Source of the DNA: a virus
Length of the DNA stretch: 64,000 bases
IMG/VR virus record: IMGVR_UViG_3300046665_000434
Span: 64,001 to 128,000 of that record
Strand: one strand, 5' to 3'
Shown here: in pieces, positions 2,434 through 8,328 of the stretch
Layout: each line of letters opens with the position of its first letter
How positions within the stretch are numbered: the stretch's first letter is position 1
Translations under genes and position numbers: made by a program
Notes under the pieces: generated by a model
The model's input: the letters and a program-made list of their open reading frames with translations, nothing else
What the model was told of the DNA's origin: nothing
The model's database searches: none

Positions 2434-2550
2434 AAAGTTACGGAAGGTGATAAGGTTATGTAAAACACCGACTGCCGCACTCATGCAGCCAGGTTGGTGA
2501 ATTACGAGGGATACCCGGCAATCCCAGCGCTCTGCGCTAAATCCGGCTTC

Positions 2551-2627
2551 GCAGTATTAGCTCAGTTGGTTAGAGCGCAGCACTGTCACTGCTGAGGTCA
2601 CCGGTTCGAGTCCGGTATATTGCGCCA
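2551..2627 (+). tRNA. tRNA-Asp(GTC)
   Basis: full cloverleaf; CAGCA-ctGTCac-TGCTG; G73-CCA. Confidence 0.95.
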
Positions 2628-2634
2628 CTTTCAT

Positions 2635-2710
2635 TCCAAGGTAGCTCAGTCGGTAGAGCAGCACGCTGTTAACGTGTTGGTCCCTGGTTCGAATCCAGGT
2701 CTTGGAGCCA
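2635..2710 (+). tRNA. tRNA-Asn(GTT)
   Basis: cloverleaf; ctGTTaa loop; GCCA end. Confidence 0.95.
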
Positions 2711-2716
2711 CACAAA

Positions 2717-2792
2717 GGGTTAGTAGCTCAATTGGCAGAGCACCGGTCTCCAAAACCGGTTGTTGCAAGTTCGAGTCTTGCTTAGCCCGCCA
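2717..2792 (+). tRNA. tRNA-Trp(CCA)
   Basis: cloverleaf; CCGGT-ctCCAaa-ACCGG; GCCA end. Confidence 0.95.
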
Positions 2793-2798
2793 TGTTTT

Positions 2799-2885
2799 GG
2801 ATGATGTAGAGACAGATGGCTACTGTCAGCGGACTGTAACCCCGCCGCTTCATGCTAGAGGTTCAATTCCTTCCTTCATCCACCA
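2799..2885 (+). tRNA. tRNA-Tyr(GTA), somewhat divergent
   Basis: ctGTAac loop, variable arm, TTCAATT T-loop, ACCA end; some stem mismatches. Confidence 0.8.
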
Positions 2886-2892
2886 CTTTAAT

Positions 2893-3016
2893 AGTCTTGT
2901 AGCTCACTGGTAGAGCGCGTCCTTTCGGTTCGACTCCGAACATGCCTCGGCTTCGGCCAACGGCGTGATCTGGATACACGGACGAGGTAGCAGGTTCGAT
3001 TCCTGCCTAGACTTCC
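2893..3016 (+). tRNA. interrupted tRNA-Val(TAC)-like gene with 50-nt insert (2925-2974) after U33
   Basis: acceptor AGTCTTG/CTAGACT, canonical D and T arms, anticodon stem CGTCC/GGACG; TT + TACAC rebuilds a 7-nt loop. Confidence 0.75.
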
Positions 3017-3023
3017 TAGCAAT

Positions 3024-3191
3024 AACTCTGTAGCTCAGTTTGGATAGAGCGTCCTCATTTTTCCCCTAGGGGGATTGCAGGTTCAAGTCCTGTCCATTGC
3101 AAGTCCCCTAGGGGAGCCTTGGCTTTGGTGGCGGAATTGGTAGACGCGAACACGAGGAAGGTCACGGGTTCGATTCCCGTCATGAGTTACC
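3024..3191 (+). tRNA. interrupted tRNA-Val(AAC)-like gene with 90-nt insert (3059-3148) that is a permuted Leu-type tRNA
   Basis: acceptor AACTCTG/CA(T)GAGTT, stem TCCTC/GAGGA; AT + AACAC rebuilds the loop. Confidence 0.75.
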
Positions 3192-3198
3192 TGTTAAT

Positions 3199-3295
3199 GA
3201 TCCCCACTCCACTAAATCCCTCAAGGCGTTCTCTTAGGAGTTGCTGAGCGATGGTGGTGCGAGTAATAGCAAGTTAAAACCTTGTGGGGGTCACC
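3199..3295 (+). ncRNA. tRNA-framed RNA (acceptor stem + long rod + T-like arm)
   Basis: GATCCCC/GGGGGTC-A-CC; GCAAG-TTAAAAC-CTTGT; long imperfect hairpin between. Confidence 0.55.
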
Positions 3296-3303
3296 TTTTC
3301 AAT

Positions 3304-3380
3304 TGGGGTATAGCCAAGTTTGGTTACGGCAACGGGCTTTGATCCCGTCATCGCTGGTTCGAATCCAGCTGCCCCTTCCA
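3304..3380 (+). tRNA. tRNA-Gln(TTG)
   Basis: ACGGG-ctTTGat-CCCGT; T arm GCTGG-TTCGAAT-CCAGC; CCA end. Confidence 0.9.
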
Positions 3381-3385
3381 TTTAC

Positions 3386-3465
3386 GATCCTTTGCGACAC
3401 GGTTGCGGTGCCGATCCTGCGATAGTGAAGCATTAGTCCCGGCACTCGACGCCGGGAGGATCACC
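3386..3465 (+). ncRNA. degenerate tRNA-like RNA
   Basis: GATCCTT/GAGGATC-A-CC; CCGGC-ACTCGAC-GCCGG T-like arm. Confidence 0.5.
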
Positions 3466-3475
3466 CTTTCGTTAT

Positions 3476-3564
3476 ACTAGGTTCCTGCCTCGGGCAGGCC
3501 AGCTGTAGGTGACTGCGCGCAACTCCACCTCGGCTGTATGGATAATCGCCATGACCTGGTCACC
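3476..3564 (+). ncRNA. cloverleaf-shaped tRNA-like RNA with long central arm
   Basis: ACTAGGT/ACCTGGT; CCTGCC/GGCAGG; CAGCTG-AGGTG/CACCT-CGGCTG; TATGG-7nt-CCATG. Confidence 0.5.
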
Positions 3565-3570
3565 CTTTAT

Positions 3571-3658
3571 AGTCCTCTAGCTCAGTTGGTTCAGAGCGTC
3601 CCCCTATCTTGCTAACGACATGGGGAAGGTCGTAAGTTCGAATCTTACGAGGACTTCC
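3571..3658 (+). tRNA. interrupted tRNA-Val(GAC)-like gene with 11-nt insert (3606-3616)
   Basis: perfect acceptor AGTCCTC/GAGGACT, stem TCCCC/GGGGA; CT + GACAT rebuilds the loop. Confidence 0.8.
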
Positions 3659-3665
3659 TATTTAT

Positions 3666-3809
3666 AACTCTATAGCTCAATTGGTAGAGCGCCATCATCT
3701 TTAGGTTGCGGGTTCGATTCCCGCATGATCCGCATGGATCATTAGCTCAATTGGCAGAGCAGAAGATCACGCGATGGAGGTTGCAGGTTCGAGACCTGCT
3801 AGAGTTTCC
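3666..3809 (+). tRNA. interrupted tRNA-Val(CAC)-like gene; 69-nt insert (3699-3767) is a complete circularly permuted anticodon-less tRNA
   Basis: outer acceptor AACTCTA/TAGAGTT, stem CCATC/GATGG; inner T arm, acceptor ATGATCC/GGATCAT and D arm; AT + CACGC rebuilds the loop. Confidence 0.85.
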
Positions 3810-3811
3810 TA

Positions 3812-3929
3812 ATGCTAGACCCACCGGGAAGCGGGTAAAACGCCGAGGGGTTGAAATTGGCGTGATGGCCTAGAGGCTCATGTTGGCCCGAATGAGAGTG
3901 AGCGCATTGAAATAATCGGGCCCCCGCAT
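3812..3929 (+). ncRNA. candidate structured RNA
   Basis: non-coding; stems ACGCCGA/TTGGCGT and GGCCCGA/TCGGGCC; possible pseudoknot. Confidence 0.35.
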
Positions 3930-3962
3930 CAACTACTACTACTAGACTAGATGGTGATGCTA

Positions 3963-4493
3963 ATGTTCATGTTGAAAATTATGTCCGGTGAAGACCGGCC
4001 AGATTCTGATGTCTCGAAGTCGTTCAAGGGCGTTATCCTTGGCGATGGGATGTCGTTCGAGTTCTCCCGTAAGGTAACGACTGAAACGGCTCTGCTGACA
4101 TTGACGAGCCCAGATGGCTCTCACGTCACTATGGACCTCGCCGGTAACGCTTACATCGTAAGTAACACCGGTAAGACCGTGGCGTCATTCGCTTACAGTA
4201 ACACCAAGCTCGTTGACGCTGAGGTAGCTAACAGGCCTACGTTCAGCGAGCACGAAGATCGTCGACAGCGAGCAGCTGCGAAGCCGCTCAACTCTGTCTC
4301 AGTGAGTGCTGAAGCGGAAGCACTTACCAGTGCCCGCATCCTCTGGTTGAGATTACACGAACCTAAACGCCTTGACCGGTTGCGTGTATGTCGAAGAGCG
4401 GACGGCAGTCTCGTAGTAAATGATCAGGTCGACACGGTCCGACAATTGGATCAGTGGGGTGTCCCAAACACCTACGGCGAACTACTGAATTAA
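3963..4493 (+). CDS. hypothetical protein; C-terminal domain paralogous to 8371..8685
   Basis: WLRLHEP..RRADGSLVVN vs WLELNDP..RRDDGSLVIN. Confidence 0.7.
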   Translation: MFMLKIMSGEDRPDSDVSKSFKGVILGDGMSFEFSRKVTTETALLTLTSPDGSHVTMDLAGNAYIVSNTGKTVASFAYSNTKLVDAEVANRPTFSEHEDRRQRAAAKPLNSVSVSAEAEALTSARILWLRLHEPKRLDRLRVCRRADGSLVVNDQVDTVRQLDQWGVPNTYGELLN

Positions 4494-4502
4494 AGAGATT
4501 TG

Positions 4503-4664
4503 GCTCCAAGCGGAATCGGGGGATTTCTAACTTGGGGCGTTGTCAGAACAGACGTTGGGCGCGGTTGCTTGAAAGATAGCGTGCTAGCCCATCGAGTTAT
4601 GCTTCCTCCGGCGGCGTTCTGATAACTAAGTGACGGGCTTCAATCCTAAGCAAGCCGGGGACCA
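4503..4664 (+). ncRNA. candidate multi-hairpin RNA
   Basis: GCTCCAAG/CTTGGGGC; GTTGTCAGAAC/GTTCTGATAAC; ends in ACCA. Confidence 0.4.
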
Positions 4665-4685
4665 AATTCTATTGGAGATAACAAC

Positions 4686-5024
4686 ATGGCGTTGGTAAAA
4701 GTACGGGTTGCGGTGACTCGCGAAAGTCTGCTGGGTCGTCTTCTGCAACTCGATCCAGAGATGGATCTCACTGACAGTATCAAGGCGGTTGAAGTTGAGG
4801 CGGTTATCGATGAAGCTGGCGTGAATCATCCCGATTGGGAATTCAACATCAGCACCATTGCTCCGTTCATCACCGGCGTTGGTACTGTCGCAGGCCATGG
4901 CAAGATCAGCTTTACAGTAAACATGCAAGATGGCGCCCTCACCATTGAGTCTACAGAGGCTGCTAAAGACCTGCTGCTGGTTCTCAAGGTTACGACCGAG
5001 AATCATAACCACCGTCCGGTCTGA
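4686..5024 (+). CDS. hypothetical protein
   Basis: GGAG SD, 112 aa. Confidence 0.7.
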   Translation: MALVKVRVAVTRESLLGRLLQLDPEMDLTDSIKAVEVEAVIDEAGVNHPDWEFNISTIAPFITGVGTVAGHGKISFTVNMQDGALTIESTEAAKDLLLVLKVTTENHNHRPV

Positions 5025-5036
5025 CAAGTTTTTTTT

Positions 5037-5111
5037 AGTATCGTAGCTCAGAGGTAGAGCGCGGCCCCGATAAGGCTGAGGTCCGTGGTTCGAAACCACG
5101 CGGTACTACCA
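5037..5111 (+). tRNA. tRNA-Ile(GAT)
   Basis: CGGCC-ccGATaa-GGCTG; ACCA end; C33 is unusual. Confidence 0.88.
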
Positions 5112-5334
5112 TGTGTGCTGATGCGCCGATGTCTTCGACTAGCAGCCTTTGAGCGGGTAGGTCGTGAGCATTGGCGCATTGGCGCCTCTTTTCCCCTCCG
5201 CAGGGGGAGACTTGAGACTATAGGGTATCTTGGTATCACGCCTGAGAATGTGTGCTGGCATATCCTGAAACCTCTGCTGGGAGGTGTCTTTCGTATGTAG
5301 GGGTACTCAGCTCCGGCATCCCGCGACTAATTTC

Positions 5335-6042
5335 GGATAGATAGGGAAGTGGCCAAACCCATCGGATTGACTTATTCTATGTATTTAAACATGGGATACG
5401 TCAATGAACTGCATCCACTGTCAGCGAGAATGTGTTAATTGGAATTCTCGGCGTGCACACGAGTGTCGTTGTCCGATGAATCCCAATCGGAAAGTCTTTA
5501 GCCCCAATCTAGGCAACCGACATTCTGAAGCTACTAAGGAGAGATGTAGGGCTGCCGCTCAACAGCAACATCGGCAAGGTTTAAGTGCCGGTTTCCCTAA
5601 CTGGGAAGGTAGAACTCATCGAGAAGAAAGTAAGTTAAGAATATCCCAAGCGCTGATGGGTAACAGGAATGGTAACCATCGAGGGGATCGACAGTCCTAC
5701 TATCGCGGGATCAGAATGGATTCTAGATGGGAGGTTCGTACTGCCGAGTGGTTAGATGACATGGGTTGTTATTGGAGATATTCTCCGAGGGGATTCCAGC
5801 TATCCGACGGGCGACACTACTATCCTGATTTCTTTGTCTATGATGATGAAGGTTGTTTAGATTACCTGATCGAAGTTAAAGGTTATTTTAGAGAAGGTAA
5901 TCGTTTGAAATTCGAAACGTTTAAACGAGAATATCCTGAAATAGAAATACGGTTGTGGGAGAAACCTCAACTTAAAGAATTGGGTATCCTTTAGAGTCCG
6001 GTCTCTATGAGTACGTCGGTTCGAATCCGACTCTGTCCTCCA
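5335..6042 (+). tRNA. type II tRNA (Leu TAG-like) interrupted after U33 by a 623-nt endonuclease-encoding insert (5369-5991)
   Basis: 5' half GGATAGA..GGG-AAGTGGCCAAA-CCC-A-TCGGA-TT; 3' half TAGAG-TCCGG, variable arm, GTCGG-TTCGAAT-CCGAC-TCTGTCC-T-CCA. Confidence 0.8.
5404..5994 (+). mobile_element. putative homing endonuclease (Zn finger + NUMOD3 repeats + PD-(D/E)XK nuclease) inside a tRNA anticodon loop
   Basis: CxxC..HxxxC; HSEATKER and HREESKLRIS NUMOD3-like motifs; SRWE..YYPDF..IEVKG. Confidence 0.8.
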
Positions 6043-6060
6043 ATTGATGGAAAGGTAACC

Positions 6061-6489
6061 ATGTCCACTACGCCTCATGTTCGAGTTGGTGTCGCAGTCC
6101 TTATTCGGAGGGCTAACGGTAAGCTTCTCGTTGGTCGTCGTCAAGGAAGTCATGGCGCTGGTACTTGGACTGTCCCTGGTGGACATCTGGAGTTCGGTGA
6201 ATCGATCGAAGACTGTGCTCGACGTGAAGTGGCTGAAGAGACTGGCCTTACTCTGCTGAGCGTATCGGTAGGTTTTGCCGTAACCAATGATATCTTCACC
6301 GAAGTCAACAAGCACTACATCACCGTCTGGGTGGAAGCTACCGTCGGTGAGATTGACGAAGCCGAAAACCTAGAGCCTGAGAAGTGCGATGGTTGGGAAT
6401 GGTATCATGGACCAGAGGTTCCCACACCTCGATTCCTAGGTCTCCAGAACTTGATAGATCAACGTCCAGCCTACTGGAGTTATACTTGA
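6061..6489 (+). CDS. Nudix hydrolase (MutT/NUDT15-like)
   Basis: Nudix box GGHLEFGESIEDCARREVAEETGL; EPEKCDGWEW; ATG 6007 lies inside the tRNA, so 6061 is preferred. Confidence 0.9.
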   Translation: MSTTPHVRVGVAVLIRRANGKLLVGRRQGSHGAGTWTVPGGHLEFGESIEDCARREVAEETGLTLLSVSVGFAVTNDIFTEVNKHYITVWVEATVGEIDEAENLEPEKCDGWEWYHGPEVPTPRFLGLQNLIDQRPAYWSYT

Positions 6490-6498
6490 TACCATATT

Positions 6499-6627
6499 TC
6501 CATGATAGCTACTCGGAAAGGCGCCGTCAATGGGTTCGACTCCCGTTACCCTTAGGGGTATGTTGCCACCCGTACGGGTGGCTTGGCATAGACGGAGATT
6601 GTAGGTTCGACCCCTGCTCATGGAACC
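6499..6627 (+). ncRNA. tRNA-like RNA with a 62-nt structured anticodon-loop region
   Basis: TCCATGA/TCATGGA-A-CC; CCGTC/GACGG; a second T arm inside the loop. Confidence 0.7.
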
Positions 6628-6669
6628 TAATCTTCAGCACAGTAGCCTATTCACGTTAGGAGTATTTTC

Positions 6670-6819
6670 ATGAGTATCGAAAACGAAAAGATCGTAACCG
6701 AACGGAAAGCTTCCGGGCCAAATCTCTCGATGCCGAAATGGAAACCCAGTCAGAAGCTCGCTGATGAGATCGGCGATGAACTTGCGGAACTGATGGCGAA
6801 AGAAGCCTCGGCCAAGTAA
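6670..6819 (+). CDS. small hypothetical protein (49 aa)
   Basis: AGGAG SD; MSIENEKIV...KEASAK; below ORF-track cutoff. Confidence 0.6.
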   Translation: MSIENEKIVTERKASGPNLSMPKWKPSQKLADEIGDELAELMAKEASAK

Positions 6820-6834
6820 GCACAACTCTTTAAT

Positions 6835-6938
6835 CCCTGGTCGACCATGCGGGGTTGGGCCTATACCCACGATACGATACGATCTAGCTACACGTCCGTC
6901 GTGGTTATTTGTCGGGAGTTCGATCCTCTCACTCGGGG
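6835..6938 (+). ncRNA. degenerate tRNA-like element
   Basis: GGGAG-TTCGATC-CTCTC T arm; CCACGA/TCGTGG long arm; weak acceptor stem. Confidence 0.35.
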
Positions 6939-6955
6939 CTGTATTTGGAGTCGCT

Positions 6956-7159
6956 ATGCTTGACAACGTTGAAGAAAATGTTGAGTACAGGTCTCCATCA
7001 GGGATCAGGTTCAAGGTAACCAGTATAGCGAGACATGCTCAGGATTGTTCCTGGCCCATGATCGTATACACTAATCTCGAACCTACCAAAGACGCACCTA
7101 CCGGTACAGTCTGGGTTATCGCTGAGTCGATATTTCTGAGAACGTTTTCGCGGATATAG
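6956..7159 (+). CDS. DUF1653-like protein
   Basis: V..IARHAQD....IVY..L....VWV...F motif. Confidence 0.6.
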   Translation: MLDNVEENVEYRSPSGIRFKVTSIARHAQDCSWPMIVYTNLEPTKDAPTGTVWVIAESIFLRTFSRI

Positions 7160-7223
7160 TTTAATGGTAGAGCCTCAGCCTTCCAAGCTGTTGACCCGAG
7201 TTCGATTCTCGGTATCCGCTCCA
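7150..7223 (+). tRNA. tRNA-Gly(TCC)
   Basis: GCGGATA/TATCCGC; ctTCCaa loop; TCCA end; overlaps upstream stop codon. Confidence 0.93.
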
Positions 7224-7232
7224 ACACAGGTC

Positions 7233-7277
7233 GCCACCTACCCTTCGGGTAGGTGGCTATACCTTCTTCTTTTTTTT
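7233..7277 (+). terminator. terminator of tRNA cluster
   Basis: GCCACCTACCC-TTC-GGGTAGGTGGC and long T run. Confidence 0.8.
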
Positions 7278-7345
7278 GTTAACGTAAGTTGCGTTTATTA
7301 TGTAGATAAATTCTTCAATACAGTTTAGCAGTAAGAGAGGTACTG

Positions 7346-7627
7346 ATGTCCTCAACCGTTCACGAACTTAATGATAACGTGTTCAGAAAGTATCTGATCT
7401 ACGCAGTCGTCGAAGACAGTGATTGTCGGCCACTTCAGCTACAGCTCCACCTGATGATGGAGCACGTCTATACCCGTAAGGGCTTGCATCCTGACGTTCA
7501 GAAAGAGGAGTTCGAGAAGTCTCTCTTTTCGTGGGCGCGTAATAACCGGTTGTTCCCTGCCCGCATTACGCCGACAGTAGAACGGTTCTTGAAAGCTAAT
7601 AAATCTAACGGGAGGATTGCAGCATGA
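7346..7627 (+). CDS. hypothetical protein
   Basis: GAGG SD. Confidence 0.65.
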   Translation: MSSTVHELNDNVFRKYLIYAVVEDSDCRPLQLQLHLMMEHVYTRKGLHPDVQKEEFEKSLFSWARNNRLFPARITPTVERFLKANKSNGRIAA

Positions 7628-8328
7628 CTCAAGAATACGCAAGCACCAAGATCGTCACCGCCTGGCACGCACAAGCGCCTAACTCTGGCGGTAAAGGTGA
7701 AGACGGCTATAGCGTCAAGTACAAGAATGGCTACGTCAGCTGGTCACCGACCGCTGCATTTGAAGAGAGTAGCGTCGCTCTCGGTAACATCAGCCACTTC
7801 CCTCCATTCCTGCAACGCCTGATTGCAGAACACGCCATCTTGAGTGACAAACTCACTAAGCTCCAGGACTTCATCGATTCGTCTGATTTCCAGATACACA
7901 TCGACGATCCTGATGAGCGTGCGCGCTTGAATCTGCAAGAGTCCCTGATGGCCCGGTATGCCGAAGTGCTGGCTGTCCGTATCGCCGTCCACAAAGAGAA
8001 AGTCGTTAATGCACCGCCTGCGACCATCACTCCAGTCATCGTGAGGTACGCCGGTAAAGGCCCGCATGAACTCCAGGAGCAAACCGTCGCTTTGGGCGAC
8101 ATGCCTGAATCGTTTGATCTCGAGAAAGTCAGCGAGGCTGTTGCAGCAAAGGTTGGCGATGTCGTATATCAGGAAGACGTCTATGAACTCGACGGCCAAG
8201 GTAGTCCTGTCGTGAACGTAGGCCATGATGGACAGCAGGTGTTTGTGATCAAGCACCACAAAGGCACGCCCGTTATCCAGGAACCGATGAAGTTTGGCGA
8301 TGAGTTCAACTTCAACAAAAACGACTGA
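7624..8328 (+). CDS. multidomain phage protein (GYxVxYxxGYxSWSP domain + crAss001_48-like helical domain)
   Basis: TKIVTA..GYSVKYKNGYVSWSPTAAFEE; RLIAEH..L..KL..L..FI...Q..LM..Y..VL..RI. Confidence 0.6.
   Translation: MTQEYASTKIVTAWHAQAPNSGGKGEDGYSVKYKNGYVSWSPTAAFEESSVALGNISHFPPFLQRLIAEHAILSDKLTKLQDFIDSSDFQIHIDDPDERARLNLQESLMARYAEVLAVRIAVHKEKVVNAPPATITPVIVRYAGKGPHELQEQTVALGDMPESFDLEKVSEAVAAKVGDVVYQEDVYELDGQGSPVVNVGHDGQQVFVIKHHKGTPVIQEPMKFGDEFNFNKND

Follow-up and report, generated by a model that had tools for sequence, protein, structure and literature searches.

An endonuclease gene inside the anticodon loop of a phage tRNA gene: a probable mobile-element scar rather than a new intron

Introduction

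When an endonuclease gene lies inside the anticodon loop of a phage tRNA gene and no known ribozyme accompanies it, is the tRNA restored by some form of splicing, or is the split gene a scar left by a mobile element? We address this question at a locus in a 64,000-nucleotide stretch of viral DNA (the window; positions 64,001 to 128,000 of IMGVR_UViG_3300046665_000434, a virus record of 154 kb in IMG/VR that is estimated to be 62% complete). A first-pass annotation of the window, made from its letters, had proposed that a homing endonuclease gene occupies the anticodon loop of a type II tRNA gene, that the stop codon of this gene is also the anticodon, and that the insert would be harmless if it were removed in trans as in archaeal introns. 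The searchable literature holds no description of ribozyme-free endonuclease genes inside phage tRNA anticodon loops. The locus offers a test of whether any bacterial system splices ribozyme-free tRNA inserts.

Anatomy of the split tRNA gene

The locus belongs to a tRNA cluster that occupies positions 2500-7300 of the window. Joining positions 5335-5368 to 5992-6042 of the plus strand yields an 85-nt type II cloverleaf with an encoded CCA and the anticodon TAG, which ARAGORN labels tRNA-Leu(TAG); with its intron option, the program also calls the interrupted gene (5335-6042) directly. The rebuilt anticodon loop has 7 nt with U33, and both halves are perfect. The 5' half (5335-5368), recovered by ARAGORN from the joined sequence and with the intron option, comprises the acceptor strand GGATAGA, a 3-bp D stem with a AAGTGGCCAAA loop, the anticodon-stem strand TCGGA and then U32 and U33. 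A phage tRNA-Tyr at another locus (L183) has a nearly identical D arm. The 3' half (5992-6042) begins with TAG-AG, its first three bases being the stop codon of the ORF, and continues with the anticodon-stem strand TCCGG, a 13-nt variable arm, the T arm, the acceptor strand TCTGTCC, U73 and CCA.

Between the halves lies the insert, a mobile cassette of 623 nt (5369-5991, plus strand), whose junction could shift by 1-2 nt within a TT/TTT repeat. It consists of 35 nt followed by an ORF of 196 aa (5404-5994, plus strand) and is almost entirely endonuclease gene; no non-coding base of the insert follows the last sense codon. These parts of the anatomy first described are confirmed: type II tRNA halves that ARAGORN folds into a cloverleaf flank a 196-aa endonuclease ORF, 35 nt separate the 5' half from the ATG, and the stop TAG stands at 5992-5994. 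No other tRNA-Leu and no canonical tRNA-Tyr is called in the record, itself 62% complete. A NUDIX hydrolase gene (6061-6489; Pfam E 1e-23) starts 19 nt past the tRNA 3' half on the same strand, and a protein with a crAss001_48-related domain is encoded at 7624-8328.

Join register and tRNA identity

The anticodon of the rebuilt tRNA is ambiguous because of the repeat at the junction. TT stands before the insert and TTT at its end, so that three registers are available, and these give TAG, TTA or GAG. ARAGORN with its intron option reads the interrupted gene of the window as Stop(TTA) with a 621-nt intron, and it reads a 97.6% identical copy at another locus (L087/L088) as Leu(GAG). The earlier statement that the stop codon is the anticodon holds in one of the three possible joins; as a general property of the gene it does not stand, being dependent on the register.

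The body of the tRNA is more informative. It shares 75% identity with the intact phage tRNA-Tyr of L183, against at most 64% with any tRNA-Leu and at most 63% with any tRNA-Ser, in a sample that is biased towards Tyr. In bacterial tRNA-Leu the discriminator is A73. Here it is U73, and the D loop, AAGTGGCCAAA, is unlike the Leu-type D arm (GG..TAGAC), so that neither of these two marks of tRNA-Leu is found in the split gene; the Leu hallmarks of 15 phage tRNA-Leu in the surveyed loci are likewise all absent. On sequence grounds we assign the split body to the tyrosine type. Because the endonuclease family targets tRNA-Tyr and the body is Tyr-like, the TAG is most simply the ORF's own stop: it more likely sits where the anticodon used to be than represents the native anticodon.

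The same cluster contains, at 2799-2886, a tRNA-Tyr(GTA)-like sequence with a 5-bp D stem, an ACUGUAA loop and a terminal ACCA. It is called by neither ARAGORN nor Rfam and folds no more stably than shuffled sequences do; a degenerate or unusual tRNA-Tyr is one possibility.

The endonuclease and its leader

The encoded protein (5404-5994) combines an N-terminal Zn finger (C3, C6, H19, C21/C23), two NUMOD3 motifs and a C-terminal PD-(D/E)XK domain like that of T7 endonuclease I, with E110, D142, E157 and K159 as its motif residues. NUMOD3 (PF07460) is matched over two stretches at 26.9 bits, above the Pfam gathering cut-off of 20.4. DUF1064 and Phage_endo_I are matched weakly in Pfam, and the PHROGs label is 'endonuclease / Holliday junction resolvase'. 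Residues C3, C6, W109-E110, P141-D142 and E157-V-K159 are invariant in 33 sequences; the block GNRNxNHRGDRQSYY and the extended motifs P141-D142-F and E157-V-K159-G are invariant or nearly so across the 33 homologues.

In a PDB profile search, the family profile aligns with T7 endonuclease I over the catalytic residues (E 3.6e-5). The AlphaFold model (pLDDT 86.4) matches PD-(D/E)XK folds, among them Bax1, TT1808, Hjc, T7 endonuclease I and the catalytic domain of I-Bth0305I. Motif and fold together place the protein in the PD-(D/E)XK superfamily, near T7 endonuclease I, and the initial reading of a Zn finger followed by NUMOD3 and a PD-(D/E)XK nuclease is confirmed by Pfam, by the invariant residues, by the profile alignment and by the fold. 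Compared with the L087 copy, to which it is 99% identical, the ORF carries nine synonymous changes and one conservative non-synonymous change. This ratio argues that the endonuclease gene is live and that its protein is under purifying selection.

A local RNA hairpin of 16 bp forms at 5366-5405 of the plus strand (-17 kcal/mol, z -5.8, matched by 0 of 200 shuffles). It covers the SD-like GGGA and reaches into the ATG, and it also forms in the folds of a mini-precursor and of the full precursor. In these models the hairpin is likely a translational control element of the endonuclease gene, similar to those that govern the translation of endonuclease genes in other phages.

The first-pass annotation had proposed another structure, in which GGGATAC (5393-5399) pairs with GTATCCT (5984-5990) and loops out the ORF. 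The pairing is possible, but as a device for looping out the ORF it does not rise above chance: a helix of this length or longer arises in 27% of shuffled 5' leaders, and a duplex energy at least as good in 16%. We rejected this long-range end-joining helix since it lies at chance level and the same bases are taken up by the far stronger hairpin at 5366-5405. Directly past the junction, many cassettes of the family carry a TATAAATA-like box, which we take to resemble a T4 late promoter; its presence fits a self-contained expression cassette.

Search for ribozymes

At E <= 10, Rfam returned no group I or group II intron and no small ribozyme in positions 5000-6400, and the group I model (RF00028) had no match in the whole 154-kb record. 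The same model finds all three ORF-bearing introns of T4 (105, 40 and 36 bits). It also finds a group I intron in the tRNA-Pro of L003 (93 bits), where the adjacent endonuclease-split tRNA-Tyr gives nothing. A negative result with group I and group II models had been predicted for the window, and it was obtained with working group I positive controls. No Rfam match to small self-cleaving ribozymes flanking the insert was found in the window and eight related loci.

The ends of the insert agree with this result. Group I introns have a terminal G, and the insert ends in C, T or T in the three registers. In the tyrosine case of L003, a terminal G appears only in the register whose 5' exon ends in G. 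These data support the first proposal to the extent that the anticodon loop of a type II tRNA gene in a phage has been invaded by a homing-endonuclease gene that has no ribozyme.

Family survey

To place the locus among its relatives we collected homologues of the endonuclease, which amounted to 74 proteins, 177 viral matches and 50 metagenome matches; the counts of arrangements are drawn from 32 distinct full-length homologous ORFs. Nearly all of these (29/32) lie among canonical tRNA genes. A complete tRNA-Tyr(GTA) starts no more than 15 nt from the stop, or overlaps it, in 9/32, and a complete tRNA-Tyr ends no more than 20 nt upstream of the ORF in 3/32. The family is widespread and without a description in the searchable literature; its members are predicted PD-(D/E)XK/NUMOD3 homing endonucleases specialised for the anticodon loop of type II tRNA genes of phages, mostly tRNA-Tyr. 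In phage tRNA clusters its genes show three arrangements: beside a complete tRNA-Tyr, frequently behind an orphan 5' half, in a broken split or, rarely, in a precise split.

Precise splits are those of the window and L087/L088 and of L003/L004/L089. In the latter group a tRNA-Tyr carries a 680-nt insert, with 37 nt before the ATG and 70 nt past the stop, and the halves rebuild a 7-nt loop with U33. Broken splits (L007, L010, L011, L020, L098, L138 and L139/L140) keep the 5' half and a complementary 3' acceptor but have lost or displaced the 3' anticodon-stem strand, the variable arm or the T arm. The stop TGA of L007 falls inside the anticodon stem, and a 7-nt loop cannot be rebuilt there; in L139/L140 the ATG comes 4 nt past the 5' half. 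Further loci (L005, L012, L016, L090, L091, L100 and L141) have an orphan 5' half (...GACTGT or ...GACTA), then the ORF, then a complete and different tRNA-Tyr. Other members of the family stand free beside tRNA-Tyr or another tRNA, many of them without matching halves.

The family forms a natural series from precise split through broken split to orphan half with a spare tRNA. Decay of the halves in relatives, which the first-pass annotation had named, together with the lack of a mature tRNA, as refuting its reading, is in part observed, in the broken splits.

In a maximum-likelihood tree, the window protein falls into a supported clade (96/93) with those of L140, L007, L144, L138 and L004. 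Within it, the precise splits each have a broken one as sister: L004 pairs with L138 (99/93), the window with L140 (81/95). L004 and L138 have leader and ORF in common and differ in their tRNA genes. A common cassette in different tRNA genes indicates that the cassette is the mobile unit and that the tRNA genes are its targets.

We also looked for insert-free alleles. The one match to an exact pattern spanning the rebuilt anticodon arm, in L137, is a chance one and not a tRNA, and a 24-nt pattern from the 3' half found nothing in viral contigs. The anticodon-arm pattern of the L003 tRNA-Tyr occurs in 43 phage tRNA-Tyr genes that are intact but differ in their bodies and contexts; for this reason we rejected these genes as empty alleles and regard them as possible targets only.

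Recent transfer of the cassette

The copy in L087/L088 (contigs ERZ1463033 and ERZ1463036) bears on how the cassette moves. These contigs and the window phage have only 5334-6050 in common, at 97.6% identity, a segment that corresponds precisely to the tRNA gene, insert included, and about 8 nt more. The context is otherwise non-homologous, and neighbouring proteins are 43-50% alike. Read from the alignment, this shows a recent transfer of the cassette between divergent phages. Different contexts, homology to the target gene at the bounds and purifying selection are found together here, as for a free-standing homing endonuclease.

The tRNA halves of the window and of L087/L088 differ in a D-loop base, in G43>A (G-U to A-U) and in the variable loop (TAT>GAAA). 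Each of these differences leaves the structure intact; by a hand estimate, the odds of this by chance are about 1 in 5, so the structure-preserving changes are not evidence of selection on the tRNA. We also considered co-conversion as their source, but they cluster close to the junction between identical outer parts, the reverse of what a simple co-conversion gradient would give, and we base nothing on this reading. In L088, a second copy of the first 8 nt of the split tRNA gene (GGATAGAT) stands 19 nt upstream of it (1113-1139, equal to L087 38-64); this repeat may be a microhomology footprint of the break repair that brought the cassette.

Interpretation of the locus

Taken together, the best explanation, to which we assign a probability of roughly 0.65, is that a homing endonuclease cassette of the free-standing type disrupted a dispensable phage tRNA gene and is not spliced, the locus being a mobile-element scar and not a new intron. 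The cassette would consist of its own leader hairpin and the Zn-finger/NUMOD3/PD-(D/E)XK nuclease gene, and would have inserted into the anticodon loop of a tyrosine-type tRNA gene, probably at or next to the site that the enzyme cuts in uninterrupted genes. We infer that the protein cleaves DNA at the tRNA gene and that the cassette spreads by homing: an active enzyme under purifying selection would allow it to move between phages by double-strand-break repair, with the short tRNA halves serving as homology arms. The transcript is most likely unspliced, and the split tRNA would be a recent, undecayed scar. Its perfect halves could be accounted for by this recency together with repeated homing, which would re-sample the arms from working tRNA genes.

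Against this scar reading stand the perfect halves, which rebuild a 7-nt loop with U33 here and in the independent tyrosine case of L003/L004/L089. A rival reading is a protein-dependent, ribozyme-free intron. Such an intron would be removed by an endoribonuclease and an RtcB-type ligase, of the host or of the phage, and a working tRNA would be restored. We consider this unlikely, even though precise, rebuildable splits occur in two different tRNA genes (those of the window and L087/L088 and of L003/L004/L089) and the differences between the halves of the window and L087/L088 preserve structure. The precursor fold retains the acceptor and T arms, and in the window no spare copy of the tRNA lies past the ORF, as this reading would have it; many relatives, however, do possess a spare tRNA-Tyr, which would be unneeded were splicing available, and sister cassettes occupy splits from which no tRNA can be built. 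Spare tRNA-Tyr genes and sisters with broken arms argue that the family has no general splicing route.

We enumerated both arrangements of the bulge-helix-bulge (BHB) motif in each of the three registers and obtained no candidate with intact flanking helices. Genes for EndA, RtcB, RNA ligase (Rnl) and LigT (PF01974, PF01139, PF09414, PF13563) are absent from the record; this is a weak point, as the record is 62% complete and the host may supply an RtcB-type enzyme. The identity of the rebuilt tRNA is also mismatched, combining a Tyr-type body and U73 with a register-dependent anticodon. The proposal that the insert is harmless through archaeal-style removal in trans is thus unsupported: no BHB forms at the insert in any register, no splicing gene is found in the 62% complete record, several relatives have broken splits, many others keep a spare tRNA-Tyr, and the tRNA body is Tyr-like. 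Were the ribozyme-free intron reading true, phage tRNA genes would tolerate such cassettes as archaeal genes do.

It is also improbable, in our estimate, that the tRNA halves are retained in a role outside decoding, either as a tRNA-shaped frame for the mRNA or as homology arms selected via the selfish element. In the frame version, the acceptor, D and T arms would fold around the ORF, which may give the mRNA processing by RNase P and at its 3' end as well as stability. The acceptor strands are fully complementary, and the D and T arms intact, even where the anticodon arm is destroyed. The acceptor pairs themselves vary (GGAGAGG/TCTCTCC in L007, GGAGAGT/ACTCTCC in L011, GGAGAGG/CCTCTCC in L138 and GGAGAGA/TCTCTCC in L139), but this variety is equally explained by repeated homing into different functional tRNA alleles. 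With the ATG only 4 nt past it, the 5' half in L139/L140 must be mRNA leader, and other tRNA bodies in the window phage carry foreign RNA modules at the anticodon-loop position; a frame is nevertheless dispensed with by the many free-standing members of the family that have no matching halves.

A cryptic self-splicing intron, with a degenerate group I or unknown ribozyme core overlapping the coding sequence, is very improbable: related phage contigs do have group I introns in tRNA anticodon loops (the tRNA-Pro of L003) and homing endonucleases commonly reside in them, but the insert offers only 35 nt before the ATG and none after the last sense codon, Rfam gives no match at E <= 10 where the controls score 36-105 bits, no register has a terminal G, and equally conserved homologous ORFs stand free beside intact tRNAs, so that the coding sequence appears unconstrained by a ribozyme.

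Comparison with known systems

The locus has partial counterparts among known elements. SegB of T4/T6 is a free-standing GIY-YIG homing endonuclease that is encoded in a tRNA cluster and recognises a tRNA-gene motif (PMC2330249, PMC13096335). It spreads with flanking tRNA DNA in co-infections and is linked to tRNA-Tyr (PMC2330249; PMC13096335), and phage tRNA-Tyr genes, which SegB reshapes, act as counter-defence genes (PMC13096335). The window gene resembles SegB as a selfish endonuclease gene in a phage tRNA cluster, with no intron and with a link to tRNA-Tyr. It differs in its protein, PD-(D/E)XK with NUMOD3 and a Zn finger as opposed to GIY-YIG, and in its position: SegB lies between tRNA genes and targets a T-arm motif, whereas the window gene lies inside a tRNA gene and splits the anticodon loop. 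A second nuclease family, unrelated to SegB, is thus tied to tRNA-Tyr, which makes it relevant to the evolution of phage tRNA clusters.

Archaeal BHB introns, some of which carry LAGLIDADG endonuclease genes in rRNA, need the BHB motif, EndA and a ligase. The window insert is like them in being an ORF-bearing, ribozyme-free insert within a structured RNA gene. Unlike them, it has no BHB, its record holds neither EndA nor RtcB, and it is found in a tailed-phage-like genome with bacterial-type tRNAs. Introns of tRNA genes are reviewed in PMC4090602.

The nuclease I-Ssp6803I is encoded in a group I intron of the Synechocystis tRNA-fMet gene (mentioned in PMC3239194 and PMC3943268). Both cases place a PD-(D/E)XK homing endonuclease gene in a tRNA anticodon loop, but the I-Ssp6803I gene sits in a self-splicing group I intron and the window insert has no ribozyme. 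In the PDB profile search, I-Ssp6803I gave no sequence match, the best alignment of the catalytic domain being to T7 endonuclease I.

In 'fractured genes', a free-standing endonuclease gene splits a host gene, and split inteins restore the product (PMC2677866); the homing endonuclease I-Bth0305I (PMC3239194) is a further counterpart. The likeness is that a homing endonuclease gene of the PD-(D/E)XK type divides a gene in two. The difference lies in the outcome: intein trans-splicing or a group I intron restores the product in those systems, and no such mechanism is evident in the window.

Other unusual RNAs in the tRNA clusters

The tRNA clusters of the window phage and its relatives contain further RNAs of unusual form. 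In the window, ARAGORN in intron mode reports four tRNA-like genes (2893-3016, 3024-3192, 3571-3658 and 3666-3809) that end in N-CCT and have oversized anticodon loops; Rfam tRNA scores among them are 49.5, 27.9 and 55.3 bits. In the last of these (3666-3809), the anticodon stem leads into an inner tRNA body that is circularly permuted and made up of a T arm, a closed acceptor hairpin and a D arm. This inner body is similar to the tRNA-like domain of the Rfam family YrlA (Y RNA-like), with 41.8 bits and E 2e-8, below the gathering score of 69. No Ro60/TROVE partner for YrlA-like modules is present in the record. The four genes look like structured RNAs on a tRNA scaffold rather than interrupted tRNA genes. 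Similar nested tRNA-like genes lie at 837-1014 and 1198-1323 of L007 (IMGVR_UViG_3300048924_000090), with a YrlA-like match of 40.8 bits at 864-976, which indicates that these odd RNAs are conserved between phages.

Unusual tRNA-Tyr-like RNAs are found directly past the endonuclease ORF in L009 (2119-2210), L019 (2014-2104) and L025 (2117-2206). A 7-bp helix (e.g. CCTAACA/TGTTAGG) encloses their GUA anticodon arm, they have no normal D arm, and ARAGORN does not call them.

Two types of mobile element share one tRNA cluster in L003. There, a tRNA-Pro(CGG) at 194-506 carries the 238-nt group I intron (RF00028, 93 bits) in its anticodon loop and is followed by an HNH_3 endonuclease gene (575-1012) and then by the endonuclease-split tRNA-Tyr.

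Finally, clusters that hold members of the endonuclease family in L005 (3385-3459), L006 (956-1030) and L017 (3077-3154) contain tRNAs with the anticodon CTA, labelled 'Pyl' by ARAGORN. These tRNAs are of the amber-suppressor type and hint at TAG recoding in the phages concerned.
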